Positions 3,958 through 50,161 of a DNA stretch of 64,000 nucleotides are shown one piece after another (the stretch's first letter is position 1; each line of letters opens with the position of its first letter). The notes below the pieces were generated by a model that did no database searches, was not told where the DNA came from, and was given only the letters and a program-made list of their open reading frames with translations. The DNA comes from a virus (taxonomy: Duplodnaviria; Caudoviricetes), in the IMG/VR virus record IMGVR_UViG_2639762904_000002, positions 3,973 through 67,972 of that record. One strand, written 5' to 3'. The translations under genes and the position numbers were made by a program.

Positions 3958-4175
3958 GCTGCCTCCTTAACGAGATCGGCCAGCAACAGGGCGTTGTCGG
4001 TTGCCTTGTGCAATTGGCGTAGGGCGTCATACCCAATCAGGGCTTTCAGCTGCCGATCAAATTCCTTGTTGTAACGGGTGAGGGCGCGCAGTGCCTTGGT
4101 GGCCTTGGTGTGTTGCTGTTGCAGTGTGCCCGCGACTTCTGGTGTCAGGCGCAGCATGGGAATGGCGCGGCTCAT
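3954..4175 (-). CDS. Hypothetical phage protein
   Basis: 73-aa ORF coupled to both neighbours. Confidence 0.65.
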   Translation of the reverse strand: MSRAIPMLRLTPEVAGTLQQQHTKATKALRALTRYNKEFDRQLKALIGYDALRQLHKATDNALLLADLVKEAA

Positions 4176-38746: not shown

Positions 38747-41467
38747 ATGCCATTATATAAAGACAAACAAACGAAAAGCGAGAAAGATACCCCACATAAA
38801 AACACAGTAAATCTAACTAAAATTGGTGGAACTGAAAATGCTAACCTCGCAAATACCAGGCCGGACAATTGGATAATTAGCTTCTTAAAAAGTAAGTATG
38901 GGAATGACACATCGCTCGGGGAGAATACATACAATTTATCGACGGCTAAGCCGTACAAAACAATCCAAGAAATCACAAAAGACCTTCAAGAAAATAATCT
39001 TGCGCCCCCCGTTTTTATTATGATTGACATGCAGCGACTAAAAAATGTTAGTTCAGGATTAAAAAAAATTCTATCAAGAAAAAACAACATCAGAACAAAC
39101 GCAAAAACTGAAAAAAATCACCTTAAAACACTTGAGTTCGCAAAAGAAAACAAACTAAGCATAATCGATGTGAATTATTTGTACAGCGGCTTTTACGGAA
39201 TGCCAAAGAACAAAACCCTTGTGCAACTTGCAAACGAAACACGTACTTACTCCACGCTTAGGCACGCTATCAGGTCAGCTCCTAATAACTGGAGAATGAT
39301 TAAAGATAGCGAAAGTATTTTTAACTCGAGCATTAATATTTCGCCCAATGATATGGAGCAAATAGAAAACTCAGATAATATTTTAAGCATCGAGCAATTC
39401 ATTGAAAAATTTCCATGCAACCCAGTCGTGCTAATGGGTCAATTAGAGGATGTGTGTGTTCGCCAAACTGCTGAGAGCTTCCTTTTAGAAGGTAGAACTG
39501 TATTAGTAAGCCAGGATTTAGTTATTGATCGCAACAATGAAAATCATATTAGTGGAGTCACGAACAATATAGATACTTCTTGGGACTACTTAGCTAAAAA
39601 CACAGGATCCTCATCAATATACAGAGGGAATTTGATTTTATTAAAAAAAGTAAAACTGGCAGAAAAAATACTGGATCTTCAGCGCTCACCACTCTCATTC
39701 TCGCCTAGTACAAGTAGAAAACGTGAGATTCCTGAAATCGAGCTCGAGGAGACAATAGACATTCAAGAAATAACCGGTGGCTTAGCTCGCCTGAGTTTTG
39801 AGAGTATCACTGAGTGTGGCGTATTGAAACCGGCTGTCAAAGAGAGCATTCTTATAAGCACAAGTGATAGGGCTATCTCAATGGCAGGTAATGCGGCGGA
39901 GGTCAGCTCTCAATCTGACGATGAGTTATGTAAACACGCCATAGTATTTAATAAGCAGCCTAATGGACTAAAGCGCCCAGAGTATGAAAGAGCCCACGGC
40001 CTGCCAGCGGGATGCCTATCACCATATGTCACCTTATCCGGATCGAATCTCTTAGGTTTAGCACGTACCTATGCTGAAAATAAAATAAAATCATCTACAG
40101 TGAAAGCCGAGGCGAGTATGTGTTCACCTAATATGGAGGGTGAAAACCTCAATTCTCATCTGGCGGTGCAAACAAGCTCAGTAGTAAGAGCATTGCAGAG
40201 TGTTGCGGATAAGTTTCTGCCTCAAAATATTGAAAAAAACATACAAAATATCCTGAGTGAAATTTCCAGTATCGTAAGATTAAATGACAGCCCTTATTCT
40301 AAATATAAGGCTCTAGCACTAACTCATTATGATGTGCTGCTGACCAATTGTTGTGTCGACGTATGCCGTTTCACTAAAGATAGAAATTTTTCACCCGAAC
40401 TAAGGGGCTCGCTATTTAAATCCATGAGCAAGTTTATGATTGACGCTGCCAAGAATCTGGATGCTGCCTGGGGTGGTAATACTCTCTCTACGGTGGTCAT
40501 GTTGTCGAATGGTTTGGACAATAGTCTGATTACGGATACGCTCCGAAGTAATATGAATCGCTTTGACATTTTTGGAAGACCCGAAACGCTTGTCGGCGAA
40601 ATAAATAAATACCTTGACAAGGTTGTAAAAGGCACAGCGGGAAGCCTTGAATCCTCAATTAATGCTATTCTCGTGTTAAGTCAAAGAGGCTTCTTGAAAA
40701 ACCTTAGCCTAAGTGATCGTGAAAATTTCATGCGATTAACTAAAGCATTTGGAATTAACGGCTCGCAGGCCTATGTACGGCCTTCCTCACACAGAAAGTA
40801 TCTTCAAAACTTTGGAGAAAACTTACTAAAACTCCAAGAGGAGGCTATATCAGCCCACAATTGTAACGCTTTAATCGAGAACCCCGTGCTAAAGTATCGT
40901 GAGGGATTTAGTTCGGGAGAAGAACCAAAAAAGGTTAGTGTTAATCCATTTGATTATATGTTTGAGAGGTTGCAACCACACTTTGCGGAAAATGATTATC
41001 TATATCAGCGTTCAAAGAACTATAAAGAAACATTGTCTCAGAATCACCGGGAGATTAAGCACCGAGCAGCAGTTCGGCATGGGAAGTCGAAAGAGCTTCT
41101 TAGGGACCAAGAGATATCAAACAATCAGAACAACATGATTCGAGAAGAGTCTCTCAAAACTGCTCATATATCTCAACAGAAAACAGAAAAAACCTTAAAC
41201 CCTATTGCTTCATTTACTGCATCTAAATCCGCCTTAACATATAAATCTGCTTTTGCGGCCAGCTCTTTTTATTCCTCTGGCCTGAGCAGACCTATTTCCA
41301 AGATGTCCGACGCGTCCCCGGGTCTTGCTGGGATGGGGACCGTGAGCGCTCTTTATGGATTGAGTGAATCGAGGAATGCTCCCGCTCCGAGTTACTCGCC
41401 CCCTTCACGCTTGCGAGGATTGGCGGTGTTGCACGATCCACAGTTCCTTGAAAGGTGGGACCACTGA
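38747..41467 (+). CDS. AT-rich 906-aa protein with N-terminal isochorismatase-like cysteine hydrolase domain
   Basis: MIDMQ, IKDSESIF, MGQLEDVCVRQTA...G..VLV..D match the Asp-Lys-Cys pattern; remainder unrecognised. Confidence 0.7.
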   Translation: MPLYKDKQTKSEKDTPHKNTVNLTKIGGTENANLANTRPDNWIISFLKSKYGNDTSLGENTYNLSTAKPYKTIQEITKDLQENNLAPPVFIMIDMQRLKNVSSGLKKILSRKNNIRTNAKTEKNHLKTLEFAKENKLSIIDVNYLYSGFYGMPKNKTLVQLANETRTYSTLRHAIRSAPNNWRMIKDSESIFNSSINISPNDMEQIENSDNILSIEQFIEKFPCNPVVLMGQLEDVCVRQTAESFLLEGRTVLVSQDLVIDRNNENHISGVTNNIDTSWDYLAKNTGSSSIYRGNLILLKKVKLAEKILDLQRSPLSFSPSTSRKREIPEIELEETIDIQEITGGLARLSFESITECGVLKPAVKESILISTSDRAISMAGNAAEVSSQSDDELCKHAIVFNKQPNGLKRPEYERAHGLPAGCLSPYVTLSGSNLLGLARTYAENKIKSSTVKAEASMCSPNMEGENLNSHLAVQTSSVVRALQSVADKFLPQNIEKNIQNILSEISSIVRLNDSPYSKYKALALTHYDVLLTNCCVDVCRFTKDRNFSPELRGSLFKSMSKFMIDAAKNLDAAWGGNTLSTVVMLSNGLDNSLITDTLRSNMNRFDIFGRPETLVGEINKYLDKVVKGTAGSLESSINAILVLSQRGFLKNLSLSDRENFMRLTKAFGINGSQAYVRPSSHRKYLQNFGENLLKLQEEAISAHNCNALIENPVLKYREGFSSGEEPKKVSVNPFDYMFERLQPHFAENDYLYQRSKNYKETLSQNHREIKHRAAVRHGKSKELLRDQEISNNQNNMIREESLKTAHISQQKTEKTLNPIASFTASKSALTYKSAFAASSFYSSGLSRPISKMSDASPGLAGMGTVSALYGLSESRNAPAPSYSPPSRLRGLAVLHDPQFLERWDH

Positions 41468-41487: not shown

Positions 41488-42050
41488 GTCGCGGTAGGAA
41501 TGGCAGTCGCCTGCCACCCCCCGCACAGATCCGTACGTGCAGAATTACCGCATATGGCTCCTGCCTTGGGTTTTGACGCCGAAACGAGTTATGGGATAAG
41601 GATGCATTGTTAGCTCACGCGGATACGGGATGAACAACCTTGCAAGCGCAGTCATGCGCTCCCAATTCAGTCGGTGTCGCTGACTCCGTCGTTTGAGGGC
41701 CTGCCTCCAGGCTCCGATAACTTCACGGCGAAAAGCATCAAGCCGTTTTGTATTACCGGGCACATGGTAGTAATTGCAGTAACCCGTAAACAGTCGATTC
41801 AGCCACTTTCCGATCACCGGAACCGGTTCGTGCCTACGCTTATGCAGTTGTCCGCGTATCTCTTTGAGTGTTGCTCTCATACGCTTGGCGATGGTCACCC
41901 GTCCGACCTCGAACATCCCATTCTTGGCTTAACTACAGAAATGCGTGAACCCGAGGAAGTCGAATGTTTCTGGTTTTCCTTCCCCACGCTTCTTGCGATC
42001 CTCCACCGCGAACCAGCCAAACCGTAGCAAACGTGTTTTCTCTGGATGTT
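41488..42050 (-). mobile_element. Group II intron 3' remnant (RT end, maturase X domain, RNA domains V-VI)
   Basis: HPEKTRL..FG, ETFDFLGFTH, GYCNYY, RRSQR; in-frame stop at 41929; D5 GAGCCATATGCGGTAATTCTGCACGTACGGATCTGTGCGGGGG and end CCTACCGCGAC. Confidence 0.88.
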
Positions 42051-42348: not shown

Positions 42349-43389
42349 ATCGACGAGGCATTCGCCGATCTGACCGGTGTCGGTGGTTTGGATGCGTTAG
42401 GCCGGCAAATCCGGGCCCAGGTACTTCGCTGCACCGGCATACCTGTTGGTGTTGGTATCGCTCATACAAAGACCCTGGCGAAGTTGGCAAACCACACCGC
42501 GAAGCGCCTGCAATCGCAGACCGGTGGTGTGGTCAATATCACCGACCCGGTTAAGCGGGACTGGGTGCTGCGTAATACGGACGTGGCGGAGGTGTGGGGC
42601 GTTGGCCGAAAGATGAAACTTCATCTCGGTACGATGGGCATAAGGTCTGCAATGGACTTGGCTAAGGCGGACCCATGGACGCTCCGCAAGAAGTTCAGCG
42701 TTGTGATCGAGAAGACGGCCAGGGAGCTGGGCGGCACGCCTTGCTTGGAGCTGGACGAGCCGGATCCGCCAAAGCAGGAGATCTGCTGCAGTCGCATGTT
42801 CGGCCAGCGGCTGACGGAGCTGCCGCCAATCAAAGAGGCGGTGGCCACCTACATGATGCGAGCTTCTGAGAAGCTTCGCGCCCAGAACTCGCTGTGCAAG
42901 AAGGTGCGCGTGAGCATCCGCACCGGCATGTTCAATCCTGAAGAGGCGAAATACGCCAACGGTGTAGTGGTAGACATGCCATACCCAACTGATGACGTTC
43001 GCCTACTCACCCAGGCGGCGGTAGGGGCGCTTGATCGTTTATTTCGACCAGGCTTCAAATACAGCAAGGCCGAGGTAATGCTGATCGACCTATGCCAGCC
43101 TGGCGAGTACACCGATGACCTGTTCGCTAAATCACAACCGGCAGAGGCAACACGGGTGATGACAGTTCTGGACCAAATCAACGAACGGTGGGGTAGGGGG
43201 ACATTGCGATCAGCCAGCGTGCCCGTCAACCCTGAATGGGGTATGCGGCGTGAGATGATGAGCCAGAGTTATACAACGCGGTTGGATCAGCTTTGGAGTG
43301 TTGAATGTAGCGGTGACAGATCGTCAGACGGGAAACGATTGGAATGGGGCAAAAATGGGGCAAACCATACGCCAATCTATGCCCCCTAA
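42349..43389 (+). pseudogene. umuC: 5'-truncated Y-family polymerase V subunit (umuC/rulB)
   Basis: Begins at IDEAFADL; TKTLAKLAN, WGMRREMMSQSYTT; N-terminal catalytic region missing. Confidence 0.88.
43344..43364 (+). repeat. ATGGGGCAAA direct repeats, putative integrase arm-type sites
   Basis: Copies at 43344 and 43355, third at 43553. Confidence 0.55.
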
Positions 43390-43476
43390 TGCCCAATATG
43401 CATTTATGCAACCTGACGTGGAAGAGCGTCACGGCCAGCAACCACGGGTCTATCCCCCAAGATCTGCTAGATACTC

Positions 43477-43524
43477 CTACACAATCGGGGTGTGGGAGGA
43501 CAGGTCTGAAGTGTTTTTACTCAT
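43477..43524 (-). pseudogene. mutS: Orphaned 5' end of mutS at the prophage att junction
   Basis: MSKNTSDLSSHTP then IV-stop where MutS continues MMQQY; location and orientation fit the mutS-tailocin-cinA locus. Confidence 0.8.
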
Positions 43525-43737
43525 TGGGTAGTAGGCAAATTCGTTGAAAGTGATGGGGCAAAGGGGGCGCTTGGCCCAGCATTTTTTGCGATGGCGGCAA
43601 GGTTAACACGCGAGGTCGGGGGTTCGCAGGTCGCAAACGGATAGGTAAAAAGCAAAAGCGGTGCGGCCCCGACATCCACCACTAAAGGAGCGGCGCCGCC
43701 ACAGGTTAGCGGTTACCAGCCTTTTCTATTTCGCGGC

Positions 43738-43920
43738 TTACTGAGTATTAACCGGCGAATCCAACACTTTCACCACATCATCAACCACCGCCTTGACCAT
43801 TCCCTGCAAGTAATGCGAAGCCCAGGCATAACGATCCGTCTCCTTGGTTATCGCCGCATCTTCTGCGAGTAGCTTGGCGACGTGGAGGAGATTGGAGGTG
43901 TGGTGCAAAGCGTTTTGCAA
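43738..43920 (-). CDS. DUF3077-like small protein, possibly 5'-degraded
   Basis: GVSLQNAL..TSNLL...RYAWASHYL..MVKAVVDD. Confidence 0.55.
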   Translation of the reverse strand: MQNALHHTSNLLHVAKLLAEDAAITKETDRYAWASHYLQGMVKAVVDDVVKVLDSPVNTQ

Positions 43921-44392
43921 GGAAACACCGCTGTTAACGCGTGAAGCTGCTCTGGCTTTTAATAAAGTCGTGTTTATGAAGAATTGTTTAAGTTGCGCTC
44001 GTAGGTCGTGCCTTCGCGAGATTCTTCCTGGGGCGAGCGTTTTTGAGCGGGTGAATTTAATTTCGAATAATCAGGGTTTTAGAAAAAACATCCGCACTAA
44101 AACAGAATCATTGATGTAATTTTTATTAGCTTCCTATCATTTTTTCCTGGCTGTCTATTCCAAAAAGGTCTTTTGTTGAAAAATTCGGAGCATGTTTTAT
44201 TGCTCACGGATGTAACAAATTGTTTCATTTTTTTGCCGTTTTTCGGTACCGACAAGGGGGCTTTCTGTCGGCGAACAGGTGATTTCCGTTCGTTACGACG
44301 CAGTGGGTTAAGCCTGGGACATTGATGATTTTGCGTGTGTCTGTTCGGCGCACTGCAAACAAGGGATTTGACAATTATCGAGGCTTGAACCC

Positions 44393-47080
44393 ATGAATCA
44401 TGTGATCAACTCCATACTGGAAAATGCATCAACTCGCCCCTCACTCGGTCATACCAACCCCGCGCTACTGCATGACGTCCTATGGCGAGCCCTGGAGCAC
44501 GCACTCAAGGCCAACACGGATGATGCTTCCCACACTCCGCATGCCCGTGCCTGTCTCAGGATCTATGCTGAAATCGATACGCTGTCGTATCTGGACAAGG
44601 GTGATTCGAAATTGGCCGCAGCTCTGGGCAAGGCGTTCTTCGAATCGCGCTCCAGCAAAGACGTCGAGGCGTTCTGGAAGTTGTTACTGATCAAGCAACT
44701 GCTGTTCGAATTGTCGGTCAGGAGTGTGGCGACCCAGATTGCTTCGCAAGCCAGTCTGCCTCGTCAGTTGCTCACGCTCGATCCGCAGTTGATTGCAGCG
44801 CCTGCGGGAGTAAATATCAGCCTGGGAGTGCTGTGCAAAGAGACCGACCAGCTCAAGCATTCCGTTGTGCTGGTCTTGCAGAAACTGGCACAGCACGTCG
44901 AGGATCGTGGCCTGAAAAAGCCTCAAGTCACTGCGCAGCTCCTGCTGGAGTTGTACAACGCCGTGTGGTCGGGCAGTAATGGCACCGATATCGAGTCACA
45001 GATTTTTTACGCCGACAGTGTGTATGACGCGTTGCCCGACGTGCATCACGCCCTGGGCCTGGCGCCGCAGGAAAAATGGCTGACCTTGTTCACCTGGTTA
45101 TACGGCGACAAGGATGGCCGCCCCTATGACACCAACCAGCACACCGAAACCCTGGTGGTGGCGCTGGAAACGGCGCTGCGCAATCGCTACATCGCTGATA
45201 TCGACAGTCTGATCAAGGACGGCGGCGCACGGCATCGCCTTGAAGAGATTCGTGCTCGCGTGGGCAAGGATCATCCCGAGCATTTCAAGCGTCCCGCCGA
45301 ACTGATCGACGCACTGAGCAGCATCCGTTTTACCCAGCCCGCCGCCATCGACCGTCTGCTGCTGCGGGTGCATGCGTTTGGCTTTCACTATCTGGATATC
45401 GAGTTTCGTGAAAACGCCGAGATGTTCAGCAGCGTGGTCGATGAGATTCTTTCCAGCCAGTGGCTGGAAACCATCGGCCTGGGCCAGGGCCGGCACTATC
45501 ACGAGCTGGATGAGCGTGCGCGTCAGGCCGCCCTTGAGGTCGCGCTGGAGGGCGGGGCGGCCCGGACGCCCGCTGCCCTGTGGCAGGAGTATTTGCAACG
45601 CACCACGCCGATTTACACCCGGAAAGCCGAGCAATATGCCGGCCAGGATTACATTGCGCTGATGGAGCAGGATCCGAGCTATATCCGCATGCACGATGCG
45701 CGCAATGCGGTGGAACGGTTTGAAATGATCGACCGTTATCGCGACCGGATGAAAATCCACGGGATCGCCGAGTACACCTCGGCCCTCAGCGCGCTGGAGG
45801 TGCTGTTCCTGATGAAAGCGGCCCAGGTACGGGACGGGATTGACATCGCTTTGCAACCTGAAGACCTGGCAGGCGCCGAGCGCACGCTGGCCACGGTGCA
45901 TGAGGTGTACGAAAACCCGGTGTACCGCCAGCACCTGGCAACGCGCGGCAACCGCCAATACATCACGTTTGGCCCCAGCGACACGGGCAAGCAAGGCGGC
46001 AAGGCCATGCATAAGCTGAACATGGCTATTGCCAATCAGCACAAGTTGATCGCGGCCCGCTACGGCATCGAGGTGGTCGTCCACGTCATCATGGGCGGGG
46101 AACACGCACGGTGTAATGGGGTGATCGCCGAGACCTTGCAGGAGTTCGGCGCGCTGGAGGGCCCGGAAACCCGCTTCATGCTGGCCGGCTGTGCGGAGAT
46201 GCGCGCTCACCTGCTGACCCGCAACCAGTCCGTCAACTTTCTCAGCCAGTTGTACCGTATGCACGCCGAGCCCAAGCCGCAGCCGTCCGAGGAGGTCATT
46301 GCCGGCAGGGTTCAACGTTGGGGGGACGTGGTGCGCCGCTACCAGGCGACGTTCTTCGAGCATCCGGCGCTGCCTTCCCTGCTGCGGGACCTGGCGCGAT
46401 TCGATGTGGTCAGGGCCACCGCCAAAGGCACCCGGCCGCCTTCTCGTATCTTCAACATCAAGGTGTTCGAGTCGCGTCCCGATGCCATTCGTGCGATTCC
46501 CTGGACCCGCGCCTTGCTGGCCGGTGGATTGCACAGCGAACTGATCGGCGTCGGGCAGTTTGCGCAAGAGCCGGCAACTTACTTGTCCAAGGCCTTCAAC
46601 GAGGATGAGAGCTTTCACACCTACGTCAAAGGCATCGCCTACGCCATTGCGCGAACCGACCTCAAATGCGCCTGGCTGACCCTGACCGGCAGCATCCCGG
46701 AAAAGGCCCACATCCAGATGCTGGCGCAAGCCTTGAAGACCGAAGCCGTCGGCACCGCCGAACAGCTGCTGGCCAGCCTGCACCTGGAAGTGATTGAAGG
46801 TAAGCGCTTCGTGTACAAAGCCACCAACGGCACCGAGCCGGCGGATCCATGGAAAATCAAGGAAGGCAGCTTGCTCAATCTATGGCCCAGCCTCAGGGCC
46901 GAGGTCTACCTCAAGGAAAAGAACTTGCGAATCTATCGCTTGTTTCTGATCTACGCCAAAAGCAATCCCGCGTTCATCCAGTCGTCATCGCTGAATGATT
47001 TCTACAGCGGGTTCCTCGCGGCCGTGAGTACCGATGCAGGCTTGGTCGATCCTGCAAGCGCCCACCATTTCACCTGGTGA
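44393..47080 (+). CDS. Divergent phosphoenolpyruvate carboxylase-like protein
   Basis: WLYGDKDGRP, FG..YLDIEFREN, GPSDTGKQGG, RPPSR, IRAIPW parallel PEPC motifs. Confidence 0.8.
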   Translation: MNHVINSILENASTRPSLGHTNPALLHDVLWRALEHALKANTDDASHTPHARACLRIYAEIDTLSYLDKGDSKLAAALGKAFFESRSSKDVEAFWKLLLIKQLLFELSVRSVATQIASQASLPRQLLTLDPQLIAAPAGVNISLGVLCKETDQLKHSVVLVLQKLAQHVEDRGLKKPQVTAQLLLELYNAVWSGSNGTDIESQIFYADSVYDALPDVHHALGLAPQEKWLTLFTWLYGDKDGRPYDTNQHTETLVVALETALRNRYIADIDSLIKDGGARHRLEEIRARVGKDHPEHFKRPAELIDALSSIRFTQPAAIDRLLLRVHAFGFHYLDIEFRENAEMFSSVVDEILSSQWLETIGLGQGRHYHELDERARQAALEVALEGGAARTPAALWQEYLQRTTPIYTRKAEQYAGQDYIALMEQDPSYIRMHDARNAVERFEMIDRYRDRMKIHGIAEYTSALSALEVLFLMKAAQVRDGIDIALQPEDLAGAERTLATVHEVYENPVYRQHLATRGNRQYITFGPSDTGKQGGKAMHKLNMAIANQHKLIAARYGIEVVVHVIMGGEHARCNGVIAETLQEFGALEGPETRFMLAGCAEMRAHLLTRNQSVNFLSQLYRMHAEPKPQPSEEVIAGRVQRWGDVVRRYQATFFEHPALPSLLRDLARFDVVRATAKGTRPPSRIFNIKVFESRPDAIRAIPWTRALLAGGLHSELIGVGQFAQEPATYLSKAFNEDESFHTYVKGIAYAIARTDLKCAWLTLTGSIPEKAHIQMLAQALKTEAVGTAEQLLASLHLEVIEGKRFVYKATNGTEPADPWKIKEGSLLNLWPSLRAEVYLKEKNLRIYRLFLIYAKSNPAFIQSSSLNDFYSGFLAAVSTDAGLVDPASAHHFTW

Positions 47081-47144
47081 TTAACCCCGATGCCCAGGGC
47101 AACCTGGGTATCGGCAGGCGCTACCCTCCAAGAGGATCAACTGT

Positions 47145-48200
47145 ATGGCAGTTACCACCCTGATACTGGATGCCCCCGGGCCGCCGTTACTGTTTGAGGA
47201 AGTCGATCGCTTTCTTGAGCTGGGCCTGGGCGTCACCCTCAACCTGCATTATTTCGCGGACAAAGAGCGCATCCGGCAGCACTACGGCATGCGCATTCAC
47301 TATGCCGAGATCAACTGCCATGACGAGCCTGACTTTATTGCCGCCGTGAGTCAGGCCGGGGGCTACAGCGTGTTCAAGACGCGCCTGAACATCCCGTTGG
47401 GCGCTGGCCTGATCCGCGCTACCACCTCGCCGGCGTTGGCCACGCCACTGCGCGCCATTGCCCAGGCTGGCACAGGGGTCAATCATATTGATCGGCTGGC
47501 GTGCGAGCAGTGTGGTGTGGCGATCCTCAATACACCGGGCTCCAACGCGGCCGCTGTTGCCGAATACGTCGTGGCCCAGGCGCTGTTTCTGTCGCGCGAC
47601 CTGGATGACTACAACGCGGAAACGCACAACGGCCATTGGGCAAAAGGCTCCTTGGCACCTGCCTGCGAATATGCCGAACTGACGCTTGGGCTGGTGGGCA
47701 CCGGCAGCATTGCCCGGCAGGTGGCGCGCAAGGCTGCGGCGCTGGGCATCAAGGTGATCGCCACCGGGTCCGAACGTTTTACCGAACCGGTGGCGTACAG
47801 CCTTGGGCTTGAACGGCGGGCAGGTCTTGAACAGTTACTGGCCGAGGCGAACATTGTCTCGATCCACGTACCGCTCACCCCGCAGACCCGAGGCTTGTTC
47901 GGCACTGCCGAGTTCCAGCAGATGCGCCAGGGATCAATCCTCATCAATACCGCGCGCGGCGGGATCGTCGACGAACACCAGTTGGCCGCCTTCATGCGCC
48001 AGTTTCCCAGGCATATCAAAGCCGTCGCCATCGATACCTTTGTCCTTGAAAAAGACCGCTTCGACTCGCCATTGACCGCTATTGCCAATGCGCAATTGAC
48101 GCCGCACATCGCTGGCAATACCACTACGGCAATCCGGACGGCGTCACGCCAGATCGTCGACAAGATCCACGCATTCAGTGCCGACGCCACCGCGCGTTAA
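47145..48200 (+). CDS. D-isomer-specific 2-hydroxyacid dehydrogenase
   Basis: GTGVNHID, NTPGSN..AVAE, GLVGTGSIA, INTARG, TPHIAG. Confidence 0.9.
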   Translation: MAVTTLILDAPGPPLLFEEVDRFLELGLGVTLNLHYFADKERIRQHYGMRIHYAEINCHDEPDFIAAVSQAGGYSVFKTRLNIPLGAGLIRATTSPALATPLRAIAQAGTGVNHIDRLACEQCGVAILNTPGSNAAAVAEYVVAQALFLSRDLDDYNAETHNGHWAKGSLAPACEYAELTLGLVGTGSIARQVARKAAALGIKVIATGSERFTEPVAYSLGLERRAGLEQLLAEANIVSIHVPLTPQTRGLFGTAEFQQMRQGSILINTARGGIVDEHQLAAFMRQFPRHIKAVAIDTFVLEKDRFDSPLTAIANAQLTPHIAGNTTTAIRTASRQIVDKIHAFSADATAR

Positions 48201-48227
48201 CCCACAGGACACAAGGAAGGCCACATT

Positions 48228-48881
48228 ATGCAAACCTCTATTGTTACCCGCCTCGACGCCCTGAGTTGCACCGACCTCAGCGATGCGATGGACCGCCTGA
48301 AAATCGTTTGCCAGTGCACCGACATCATGCCTCTGGACCGGTCGTTCAACCTTACAGGCAAAGCCTGGACCCTGCGCTACGGCCCTATTGGCCTGGACGG
48401 CGGCTCGGTGGGTGACTACATCGACGACCTTGAGGCCGGCCAGGTGGTAGTGATCGACAACCAGGCGCGGCTCGACACCACCGTGTGGGGCGATTTGCTG
48501 ACCTCTACCGCCGCCCGTAAGCAGTTGGCCGGGACGGTGATTGACGGTATCTGCCGCGATGTCGACCGTGCGTTGGAGCTTAACTACCCGATCTTTTCCC
48601 GGGGGAACTGGATGCGCACCGGCAAGGATCGCGTGCGTGTCGAAGCGATCCAGGCGCCCGTTACGCTGGGTGGCGTGCGGGTACAACCCGATGATTGGTT
48701 GCGCGGCGACGGTGACGGCCTGGTGGTGATTCCGGCCGGCTCACTGAGCGAAGTGCTGGAGGTGGCCGAAGAAATCCACCAGGCCGAAGAACATATTCGT
48801 GCGGCTATCGAGGCGGGCGTTCCTTTACGCAAAGCTCGCGCCGATTACGGCTACCACGCTTTGCAGACTCCGCGCCGCTGA
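48228..48881 (+). CDS. RraA-family / HMG-CHA aldolase-like protein
   Basis: LSDAMD, WGDLL, IDGICRD, GDGDGLVVIP. Confidence 0.88.
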   Translation: MQTSIVTRLDALSCTDLSDAMDRLKIVCQCTDIMPLDRSFNLTGKAWTLRYGPIGLDGGSVGDYIDDLEAGQVVVIDNQARLDTTVWGDLLTSTAARKQLAGTVIDGICRDVDRALELNYPIFSRGNWMRTGKDRVRVEAIQAPVTLGGVRVQPDDWLRGDGDGLVVIPAGSLSEVLEVAEEIHQAEEHIRAAIEAGVPLRKARADYGYHALQTPRR

Positions 48882-48931
48882 CTGGCCGACGACAGAAGCC
48901 GCCGCGGGTGCGGCTTCAATTGATGCTGGCC

Positions 48932-49041
48932 GGGGTGGCCAATATCACCGACCCGATTAAGCGGGACTGGGTCTTGCGCAATACGGACGTGGCGGAAATC
49001 TGGAGTGTTGGCCGCAAGATGAAACTCCGCCTCGGTGCGAT
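48932..49041 (+). pseudogene. umuC: 110-bp umuC fragment, diverged copy of 42526-42635
   Basis: NITDP(I/V)KRDWVLRNTDVAE(I/V)W.VGRKMKL in both. Confidence 0.85.
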
Positions 49042-49178
49042 TTTTGCAGCCGGTCGCTGCTGGATAAGGTGGGCAAAAACTAAAAATCCGATCAGTGCCT
49101 TGAAAATGATGAGCTGACTTTTGCTTGCTCACATCTCAATGCCGGATAGAGAGAAGTCAGGGCATGAGTACGACCAGA

Positions 49179-49550
49179 CTATTTGGATTTACGCCCACTG
49201 GCCGGAAACAACCCTCTGATCACCCCAAGAAACGCCGCAAACAAGTTGATTGAAGTCGCCGTAGTGATGGCAATCAACACATTGTCCGAGAACGGCGCTT
49301 TACCCGAGTAATACGTCGACCAGCCATTCCACACCAGCAGGACCCCCCAGAAGATCACCCCGCACGCAGCGAACCAAAACGCACGCCCCGCATATTTCTT
49401 GCGCAGTTGCCTTTCAGCCTTCTGGTCTTTGAGGTTCTGGCTTCTTTCATCGTCGGTGCCTATGGCTTGCTCGCCACCGGCTTGGGTGTCCTGGTCAGGC
49501 CCTGCCACGGGGGGCAGGGTGAGTTCCAGGTTGTCGAGTTCTTCACTCAC
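49179..49550 (-). CDS. Two-TM membrane protein, putative toxin partner of Panacea antitoxin
   Basis: GTG start overlapping the upstream gene end; acidic N-terminus, two hydrophobic helices. Confidence 0.65.
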   Translation of the reverse strand: MSEELDNLELTLPPVAGPDQDTQAGGEQAIGTDDERSQNLKDQKAERQLRKKYAGRAFWFAACGVIFWGVLLVWNGWSTYYSGKAPFSDNVLIAITTATSINLFAAFLGVIRGLFPASGRKSK

Positions 49551-50031
49551 GGATGCGGCTCTTTGGGTGAATGAGTGCTGCCATGTCTTCCCAGTCAATA
49601 GCCGAACCGTCGGCGCCCTTGAGGGCCCAGGCTGTGCCGTCCTCGTGGGAAAGGTTGGACAGTTGGGTGCCGGACCATTTGCCGTATTTGTTAATGATCC
49701 GGTCAATCAAACGATGGGTGTAGGTATCGCTCTCAGGAACCCTCGGTGTTACGAAGACAATGTCTTCGGCGTCGGGCTTCAGGTTGCTGAGCAGTGCGGT
49801 CACCGGGCGATTACCGTAGGATTTCAACTCATGGTAAAGCGACGGGATGACCGGGCCATATTGCCAGCGGGCGAAGTGGTCATCCATCAGGGGCTGGTCC
49901 CGTTCGCGCAAATGCCAGGACTGTGTATAGAACAGCAGCTTCTGCAGCTTCATCGGGGTCAGGCCCGAAATCTTGCCTTCCTTCGCGCGTTCAATGAAGG
50001 CGTTAGCAACAGCTAGCGCTGAATAAGCCAT
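49543..50031 (-). CDS. Panacea-domain (DUF4065/SocA-like) antitoxin
   Basis: VANAFI, LTPMKLQKLLFY, WQYGPVIPSLY, LSNLSH...W. Confidence 0.88.
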   Translation of the reverse strand: MAYSALAVANAFIERAKEGKISGLTPMKLQKLLFYTQSWHLRERDQPLMDDHFARWQYGPVIPSLYHELKSYGNRPVTALLSNLKPDAEDIVFVTPRVPESDTYTHRLIDRIINKYGKWSGTQLSNLSHEDGTAWALKGADGSAIDWEDMAALIHPKSRIRE

Positions 50032-50161
50032 GAGCACCTCCGTCGTTGCTGGCTAGGTGATTGAGGAGTTTTATACATAGCCCCTGAATTGTCGATAAGC
50101 AAGGGACGTTGACATCCGTGGCGTCTCAATCAGGCCGCCCGCAAGAGTAGTGGGTAATCAA

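Follow-up and report, generated by a model that had tools for sequence, protein, structure and literature searches.

A mobile three-gene cassette of Pseudomonas encoding a histidine-less relative of phosphoenolpyruvate carboxylase

Introduction

Phosphoenolpyruvate (PEP) carboxylase, or PEPC, is among the best-studied enzymes of central metabolism, and to our knowledge its superfamily has only one known reaction. This report addresses a three-gene cassette of soil Pseudomonas that carries a divergent member of this superfamily. The cassette lies in a 64,000-nucleotide stretch of DNA, here called the window, which covers positions 3,973 to 67,972 of the IMG/VR virus record IMGVR_UViG_2639762904_000002. 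The record is classed as a provirus, and its closest genome is a fluorescens-group Pseudomonas, with 99% protein identity to P. paracarnis (locus L004; loci are cited by L numbers and genomes by G numbers). The three genes encode a PEPC-like protein (P0001), a D-2-hydroxyacid dehydrogenase (P0002) and an RraA-family protein (P0003), and together with a leader and a terminator they make up a metabolic cassette of about 5 kb, which is self-contained and horizontally mobile and occurs in the Pseudomonas fluorescens group. We favour, with a probability of roughly 0.45, the reading that this is a horizontally moved module which would make a specialised organic acid from PEP, using non-canonical chemistry on the PEPC fold followed by an aldolase and a dehydrogenase.

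The PEPC-like protein and its clade

P0001 is homologous to canonical PEPC over about 640 columns, and its 895 residues compare with 883 in the E. coli enzyme. The Pfam family PF00311 (PEPcase) is matched at 72.7 bits (E 2.2e-20, cut-off 22.4) in three stretches, an hhalign comparison with 25 canonical PEPCs gives a probability of 100% (E 2.4e-48, 644 columns), and a search of the ESM Atlas returned PEPcase clusters only. The NCBIfam equivalog of PEPC, PRK00009, is matched at 65.5 bits against a cut-off of 815, so that the level of an orthologue is not reached and the label "divergent", given in the preliminary description of this region, is therefore correct. In public databases the protein is annotated as "phosphoenolpyruvate carboxylase".

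A word-indexed search gathered 24 family proteins. Among 1.84 billion proteins there were 18 representatives at E<=1e-30, below which the matches drop to canonical PEPCs at E ~1e-10. Members are found in Pseudomonas, Trinickia, Burkholderia, Bradyrhizobium, Methylopila and two gammaproteobacterial metagenome-assembled genomes. A tree of 56 sequences, built by a quick method with a midpoint root and some long branches, recovers the 20-row core family as a single branch (SH-aLRT 100) and sets the core with four more distant histidine-less sequences apart from 26 canonical PEPCs with a support of 99. These searches and this tree show the clade of the PEPC-like protein to be rare and well separated. 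A second divergent PEPC group (P0054, P0055, P0060, P0061, P0067 and P0128) is sister to the histidine-less clade (SH-aLRT 100); it keeps TAHPT and has IIAE for IISM, TLSES for PLFET and AKSDTQR for GYSDSxK.

E. coli ppc was added to the clade alignment for residue numbering. Eight residues are invariant in all 20 clade members, namely W248, R396, E506, D543, K546, R587, R699 and R713, and in P0001 itself E490 corresponds to E506, D530 to D543, R339 to R396, R681 to R699, R700 to R713 and R573 to R587. We take E506 and D543 to be the metal (Mg/Mn) ligands of E. coli PEPC, R396, R699 and R713 to be its PEP-phosphate ligands, and W248, L504 and M538 to form its hydrophobic pocket. Two of these three pocket residues are changed in the clade, L504 to Q in 20/20 and M538 to T or V (T in P0001), which makes the pocket more polar. 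At the position of His138 all 27 canonical sequences have H, while the clade has K in ten members, Q in nine and M in one. Additionally, His579 becomes V or I, R581 becomes I, M, L or T, and K620 becomes H in 17 members. The loop FHGRGGxxGRGG reads V(I/V)xG(G/Y/H)EHAR(C/S)NG, with R587 the only one of H579, R581 and R587 retained and with an invariant His571 inside the altered loop; TEQGE reads (A/S)Gxx(E)MR. The roles of His138, His579 and R587 in PEPC are taken from passages of PMC11832675. As read from the alignment, the clade retains the metal and PEP-phosphate residues and has lost the carboxylation residues (His138, His579, R581) and the glycine-rich lid.

The motifs quoted in the preliminary description are all present in P0001: WLYGDKDGRP at 235-244, GPSDTGKQGG at 527-536, HVIMGGEHARCNG at 564-576 and IRAIPW at 699-704. 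Its last residues are HHFTW, without the C-terminal RNTG, and in place of the canonical TAHPT the protein has LCKETD (147-152), with K149 opposite His138, so both absences reported earlier hold. The earlier proposal that GHTNP, near residue 21, might be the counterpart of TAHPT is ruled out, as MAFFT and hhalign agree on the register and both pair TAHPT with LCKETD. P0001 thus differs from canonical PEPC in having no TAHPT, His138, His579, R581 or RNTG and in the replacement of both the GRGG loop and TEQGE. Canonical PEPC is a stand-alone housekeeping gene, whereas P0001 is part of a mobile operon and resides alongside a canonical copy, which was found in 5/5 host genomes examined (785-1105 bits).

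Such a protein might be a second PEPC isozyme, anaplerotic and unregulated, whose two neighbours are unrelated to it. The Pfam match above threshold and the public annotation speak for it, but the score lies far below the 815-bit equivalog cut-off, the catalytic His138 is absent, the clade is distinct, and the gene moves in fixed order as one block with a shared leader and terminator. Given also the canonical PEPC of the hosts, an ordinary anaplerotic enzyme is hardly credible here.

A genuine carboxylation is a more serious alternative. PEP and bicarbonate would give oxaloacetate, the RraA protein would add pyruvate to form 4-carboxy-4-hydroxy-2-oxoadipate (CHA), and the dehydrogenase would reduce this to a branched hydroxy-tricarboxylate that could act as a chelator or antimetabolite, as proposed in the preliminary description. 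The conserved metal and PEP-phosphate ligands and R587 agree with it, and the recurring partners all suit oxaloacetate-type substrates (RraA, the beta-keto-acid cleavage enzyme BKACE in L006 and L014, and a dehydrogenase related to McyI and D-3-phosphoglycerate dehydrogenase). A substitute base could be K138, present in 10/20, or the invariant His571. Yet all 20 members lack His138, His579 and R581 and have a remodelled glycine-rich loop; position 138 varies among K, Q and M, which argues against a catalytic role there; L504 and M538 have turned polar; and the hosts already make oxaloacetate with canonical PEPC. With the carboxylation residues gone, the step from PEP to oxaloacetate is doubtful, and the route through oxaloacetate, CHA and reduction, although possible if another residue replaces His138, seems to us unlikely. 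The residue pattern agrees better with the other option raised earlier, that of a PEPC fold turned to another substrate.

Gene content, mobility and decay of the cassette

The three genes are co-oriented on the plus strand, and their open reading frames (ORFs) match exactly those described before: P0001 at 44393-47080 (895 aa; Pfam PEPcase), P0002 at 47145-48200 (351 aa; Pfam 2-Hacid_dh_C) and P0003 at 48228-48881 (217 aa; Pfam RraA-like). The leader is indeed AT-rich, with a GC content of 0.45 at 44000-44499 against 0.56-0.63 within the genes, and the conserved block is a compact three-enzyme unit without regulator or transporter, as first noticed. When the three genes were compared with four other copies, dN/dS (the ratio of nonsynonymous to synonymous substitution rates) was 0.05-0.20 in the 11 of 12 pairs for which it was computable, P0002 against L003 being saturated; by gene it was 0.08-0.12 for P0001, 0.11-0.20 for P0002 and 0.05-0.08 for P0003. 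All three are under purifying selection and are therefore real genes, not chance ORFs. The 64-base spacer between P0001 and P0002 (47081-47144) contains an inverted repeat, CCCGATGCCCAGG...CCTGGGTATCGG. A GC-rich hairpin on the plus strand at 48895-48917, 3' of the last stop, is a probable terminator and the right end of the cassette. It is kept in close copies and replaced by a different hairpin at the same position in L002/L005, L003 and L032; the terminator scan did not list it because of its weak T-tract.

The limits of the unit are drawn by its copies. The homology block common to the Pseudomonas copies, with leader, three genes and terminator, spans 43947-48930 (plus strand). By blastn, homology starts at 43947-44212 and ends at 48871-48930 in L001-L003, L005 and L028-L033, with unrelated flanks; in L004 it extends further on both sides. 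The P0001 gene occurs in 9/401 sampled Pseudomonas species genomes, once internally deleted, and the cassette is found in at least five different flanking contexts. It stands beside mutS and a tailocin in the window and L004, beside a P4-like integrase with lactate permease and D-lactate dehydrogenase genes in L002 and L005, beside PTS genes and purL in L003, and beside ada and a PEP-mutase-family gene in L001. No terminal repeats of the cassette were seen, and 0/72,556 plasmid records contain 80% or more of it, with RraA fragments as the only matches. The order P0001-P0002-P0003 is contiguous in all ten other Pseudomonas genome loci with a full-length PEPC-like gene. Co-conservation of the three genes thus reaches no further than the genus; beyond it, the dehydrogenase is near the PEPC-like gene in 2/9 loci and the RraA gene in none.

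Decayed copies are also found, and the PEPC-like gene is damaged in all four. L033 has its residues 1-181 fused to a C-terminal part (779-895 or 759-895) together with a frameshifted RraA gene, and L038 has residues 1-70 joined to 824-895. In L120 the PEPC-like gene is gone, the leader abuts the dehydrogenase gene and the RraA gene is internally deleted, and in L129 a PEPC-like fragment is all that remains.

The dehydrogenase and the RraA-family protein

P0002 carries both Pfam domains of its family, PF02826 (2-Hacid_dh_C, 146.9 bits) and PF00389 (2-Hacid_dh, 52.2 bits), as well as NTARG, DTFVLE and TPHIAG, presumably the usual Arg, Glu and His motifs. All 24 NCBIfam matches lie below their cut-offs, the best being PGDH at 179 against 454 bits, and no named substrate class is reached. 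Among solved structures, D-3-phosphoglycerate dehydrogenases (122 bits) and McyI (115 bits) come closest. P0002 resembles this branch in its domains, but differs from it in lacking an ACT or regulatory domain and in an unusual N-terminal region of 100 residues.

Orthologues of P0002 (64-94% identity) are present in 22/401 sampled Pseudomonas genomes, and their non-cassette settings imply that the cassette recruited a dehydrogenase that also works elsewhere. In three loci (L124, L125 and L128, from G254, G007 and G035) the orthologue, at 78-80% identity, lies beside a LysR regulator, which is flanked divergently by another RraA-family gene (33% identity) and a class I/II aminotransferase gene; Pfam was run on L124 and L125 only. 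The pairing of this dehydrogenase with an RraA gene recurs independently.

P0003 matches the Pfam RraA-like family (PF03737) at 119.8 bits and is a probable class II pyruvate aldolase/oxaloacetate decarboxylase. Like the HMG/CHA aldolases (LigK, GalC, ProA; structure 3noj), it has the RraA-like fold, and its R110-D111 align with the catalytic R123-D124 of 3noj, together with the preceding GD(L/I)L aspartate; the R-D pair is invariant in a 17-sequence alignment of the subfamily. It scores only 40-49 bits to 3noj, however, and its gene is detached from ring-cleavage genes. Orthology to LigK/PcmE is not reached in NCBIfam (TIGR02798 ligK_PcmE, 69 against 304.5 bits; PRK09262, 71 against 179). The closest solved relative is the uncharacterised protein 3k4i (146-185 bits).

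The subfamily of P0003 is large and well conserved. Relatives at 55-77% identity, from metagenomes and plasmids, typically occur as two to three tandem RraA genes, which adjoin LigB-type extradiol dioxygenase, Amidohydro_2, RidA or Rieske oxygenase genes, that is, aromatic ring-cleavage clusters. In the phylum sample, close relatives were limited to the host genome (1/401), a sampling that is uninformative on this point.

These surroundings invite the view that the cassette is a catabolic or salvage module, in which the aldolase would cleave an environmental 4-hydroxy-2-oxo acid of plant or aromatic origin, the dehydrogenase would oxidise a D-2-hydroxy acid as feed and the PEPC-like protein would handle a product. 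The tandem RraA sets, the three Pseudomonas genomes with the dehydrogenase lineage beside a LysR regulator, another RraA gene and an aminotransferase, and the lack of an exporter in the cassette agree with such a role. The cassette, though, has neither an uptake transporter nor a regulator, an enzyme that consumes or binds PEP lacks an obvious role in a cleavage pathway, and the PEPC-like relatives are coupled to efflux pumps, not importers, in three loci. Furthermore, among 80 loci with relatives of P0003 a PEPC-like gene or P0002-type dehydrogenase occurs only in four of Pseudomonas type (L036-L039), and in 0/40 RraA-relative loci with readable flanks. We consider the catabolic reading improbable and weaker than synthesis of an acid from PEP.

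Gene neighbourhoods outside Pseudomonas

Other members of the clade keep different company. In Trinickia (L006) and a metagenome-assembled genome (L014), a dehydrogenase from the lineage of P0002 (47% and 42% identity) is encoded on the opposite strand, a BKACE gene is nearby, and an efflux-type major facilitator superfamily (MFS) gene lies directly downstream of the PEPC-like gene. Another metagenome-assembled genome (L013) has an MFS pump and a 2-oxoglutarate (2OG)-Fe(II) oxygenase with the PEPC-like gene. An efflux-type MFS gene is thus directly 3' of the PEPC-like gene in 3/3 loci that are neither alphaproteobacterial nor from Pseudomonas, and these export pumps suggest that the product is released.

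The six loci from Bradyrhizobium and Methylopila (L007-L012) share another operon, with an NMT1-type ABC transporter, a long GMC oxidoreductase, the PEPC-like protein, an FAD monooxygenase (PRK07538 subfamily) and a class II DAHP synthase. In L011 the FAD monooxygenase gene overlaps the PEPC-like stop by 4 bases and a cytochrome c gene is beside that of the GMC oxidoreductase (the cytochrome c was checked in L011 only), and both Methylopila loci add a QuiC-type 3-dehydroshikimate dehydratase. The PEPC-like protein of this operon belongs to the same clade (38-44% identity, the same altered motifs), but its partners are wholly other, without the RraA gene, this type of dehydrogenase or the Pseudomonas-type leader. 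The Bradyrhizobium/Methylopila operon may be a better system for finding the chemistry of the clade.

Tailoring-type neighbours overall comprise BKACE, 2OG oxygenase, SDR and FAD monooxygenase, with class II DAHP synthase. Only Pseudomonas has the three-gene set. The more general feature is that the PEPC-like enzyme is encoded in a small operon among tailoring-type enzymes, joined by an exporter in three lineages.

Leader RNA and probable control of expression

The cassette has a control region of its own. A sigma-70-like site at 44111-44140 (plus strand), from a consensus scan, includes the candidate -10 hexamer TATCAT at 44135-44140. The scan is weak alone, with two promoter-like sites found against 2.5 expected; the hexamer region is kept in divergent copies, and the conserved leader starts just 3' of it. 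All copies conserve the stretch from the hexamer to the start codon. This structured 5' leader of about 240 nt (44156-44392, plus strand) is 76-78% identical to the window in L032 and L039 and 58% in L003, whereas synonymous sites of the next gene are 46% identical in L032 and 30% in L003.

A consensus fold of the leader has 68 pairs, with 96.4% of cells paired against 38-46% in slid controls. It includes a palindrome (44212-44226), a hairpin (44266-44300) and a second hairpin (44333-44356) in which three pairs show compensatory changes. In helix 8, an anti-Shine-Dalgarno strand at 44303-44318 is predicted to pair with 44378-44395, which holds the Shine-Dalgarno (GAGG) and the start codon, through 16 pairs with 95.6% of cells paired. 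Seven pairs change on both sides, compared with 2.2 in shuffles (0/500 as high); support from covariation is modest, because slid controls reach 6 and the structure was derived from the same sequences. In helix 8 covariation is limited, since the ribosome-binding site and the coding sequence restrict changes in its 3' strand.

Rfam gave only a chance-level miRNA match over 43400-49200 (minus strand, E 0.86). The leader motif was found in Pseudomonas cassette loci only (29 of 119 loci), and its BLAST matches in 11/401 genomes were ten cassette or remnant copies and one 27-base match. The leader looks like a dedicated translational control element that probably sequesters the ribosome-binding site and holds expression off. 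The palindrome, GTAACRANTTGTTWC, was also considered as the operator of a regulon. With one mismatch it has 4-6 sites per genome in three hosts, against 3-9 for its reversed control; as these counts are like the control and the cassette site is the sole exact one, no regulon is indicated.

Genomic location and the prophage boundary

Although the window comes from a provirus record, the cassette is chromosomal cargo of a hot spot between mutS and a tailocin cluster, and not a set of phage auxiliary metabolic genes. The 17-bp attR core of an upstream prophage lies at 43484-43500, and the same 17-mer is at positions 2552-2568 of the record, within the 5' end of the intact mutS gene at the left end of the record (L116). 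The original start of mutS, now displaced, is recognised at window 43472-43524 by comparison with the prophage-free L004, its first codons remaining at 43484-43524. The core at both sites and the displaced start place the prophage in the 5' end of mutS, with its end at about 43483. From attR it is about 450 bp rightwards to the start of the cassette, whose place is the interval that ancestrally separated mutS from the tailocin repressor; P. paracarnis has the order mutS, cassette, Panacea-domain gene, repressor and tailocin without a prophage. With attR to its left and a copy likewise next to mutS in L004, the cassette is therefore not phage cargo. In fact, 50,697 phage records contain zero P0001 homologues; P0001 recurs at 99-100% identity in two further IMG/VR records.

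The IMG/VR record merges prophage, cassette and tailocin cluster. The prophage, of about 45 kb, gives mutS a substitute N-terminus and leaves it intact (863 aa, 99% identity to L004). Upstream of the cassette come genes for phage tail and lysis proteins, for a Dam methylase and for an SRAP protein. A 906-aa orphan ORF near the right end of the prophage (38747-41467, plus strand; GC 0.37-0.42 against about 0.6) has zero Pfam, PADLOC or PHROGs matches; it may serve the phage in defence or as some other accessory gene. Two further pieces look like decayed cargo at the prophage end: a group II intron maturase remnant with a weak match (GIIM, below threshold; 41545-41916, minus strand) and an umuC/IMS-family ORF without most of the N-terminal polymerase domain (42388-43389, plus strand). 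Downstream of the cassette an S24/HTH repressor and P2-like baseplate and fibre genes form the tailocin cluster. In the interval between the cassette and the repressor, a probable toxin-antitoxin pair (49179-50037, minus strand) consists of a SocA/Panacea-domain gene at 49543-50037, assigned from its L004 counterpart and phrog_1281, and a small downstream ORF on the same strand that matches a PHROG of unknown function.

The cassette shares its hot spot with a prophage, a toxin-antitoxin-like pair with a Panacea domain and a tailocin cluster, and in two species a P4-like integrase adjoins it. This brings to mind an anti-phage or competition device, which on induction would drain PEP, for instance by way of pyruvate enolate into D-lactate or D-malate, and would thereby halt the cell or poison its neighbours. 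The apparently tight sequestration of translation and the repeated loss of the PEPC-like gene, which suggests a cost, would suit such a device. Against this, none of the eight scanned proteins matches PADLOC-DB, no sensor, nuclease, NTPase or other typical defence component is present, and the homologous operons of Bradyrhizobium and Methylopila resemble ordinary metabolic operons; PHROGs gave only a family of unknown function, for P0002. A defence role is thus very unlikely, and both it and the housekeeping reading are weaker than the biosynthetic one.

A proposed mechanism and its significance

The favoured reading, a module for a specialised acid, may be put in steps. The PEPC-like enzyme would bind PEP and cleave its phosphate, leaving a metal-bound pyruvate enolate. 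Canonical carboxylation would not follow; the enolate would either attack another electrophile of greater polarity or leave the enzyme as a 2-oxo acid. From the resulting 2-oxo acid or 4-hydroxy-2-oxo acid, the RraA-type class II aldolase/decarboxylase and the PGDH/McyI-like dehydrogenase, which are of kinds that act on 2-oxo and beta-keto acids, would produce a D-2-hydroxy di- or tricarboxylate. PEP would be spent on this specialised small acid. Its production would be restrained by the long structured leader over the ribosome-binding site.

Several points weigh against this reading. The argument from residues is alignment-based, and K at 138 or His571 could in principle rescue carboxylation. 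An RraA gene is beside the PEPC-like gene in 0/9 loci outside Pseudomonas, so a single linear pathway through the three enzymes does not necessarily follow, and the ring-cleavage clusters around the relatives of P0003 are a catabolic setting. In 12 of the 22 genomes with a P0002 orthologue the protein search found no PEPC-like gene, although among them G223 has a decayed cassette and G041 a PEPC-like fragment. The cassette has no exporter, and the deletion or breakage of the PEPC-like gene in L033, L038, L120 and L129 marks it as dispensable or costly. Finally, the runs listed as RNA over the window are single contigs of 9-15 kb with even depth across genes and spacers; they are uninformative on transcription and give no support for expression.

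A bolder form of the proposal would make the clade a new activity of the PEPC superfamily, with the enolate joined to an electrophile other than CO2 or the phosphate of PEP passed to another acceptor, and would make the Pseudomonas set a pathway to an undescribed hydroxy-polycarboxylate, switched by a leader RNA that responds to a ligand or signal. We hold this form to be doubtful. In the full-text literature, where subscription journals are incompletely covered, no paper on such a PEPC-like protein or gene combination was found, PMC13492144 mentioning PEPC in an unrelated table entry only; to that extent, the earlier statement that the combination is undescribed as a pathway holds.

For the reading of databases, the analysis corrects a record: genes filed under a provirus are chromosomal cargo of the mutS-tailocin hot spot. 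For experiment, the Pseudomonas cassette is attractive: it spans 5 kb, brings its own control region and can be transferred to a cassette-free laboratory strain. Its long conserved leader is a candidate new cis-regulatory RNA. For the family itself, the clade recurs in conserved operons of three types, of which two include export pumps or enzymes of aromatic pathways. With the PEP and metal site apparently kept, the carboxylation residues shed and these three operon types conserved, the clade would be a testable candidate for a second chemistry on the PEPC fold.

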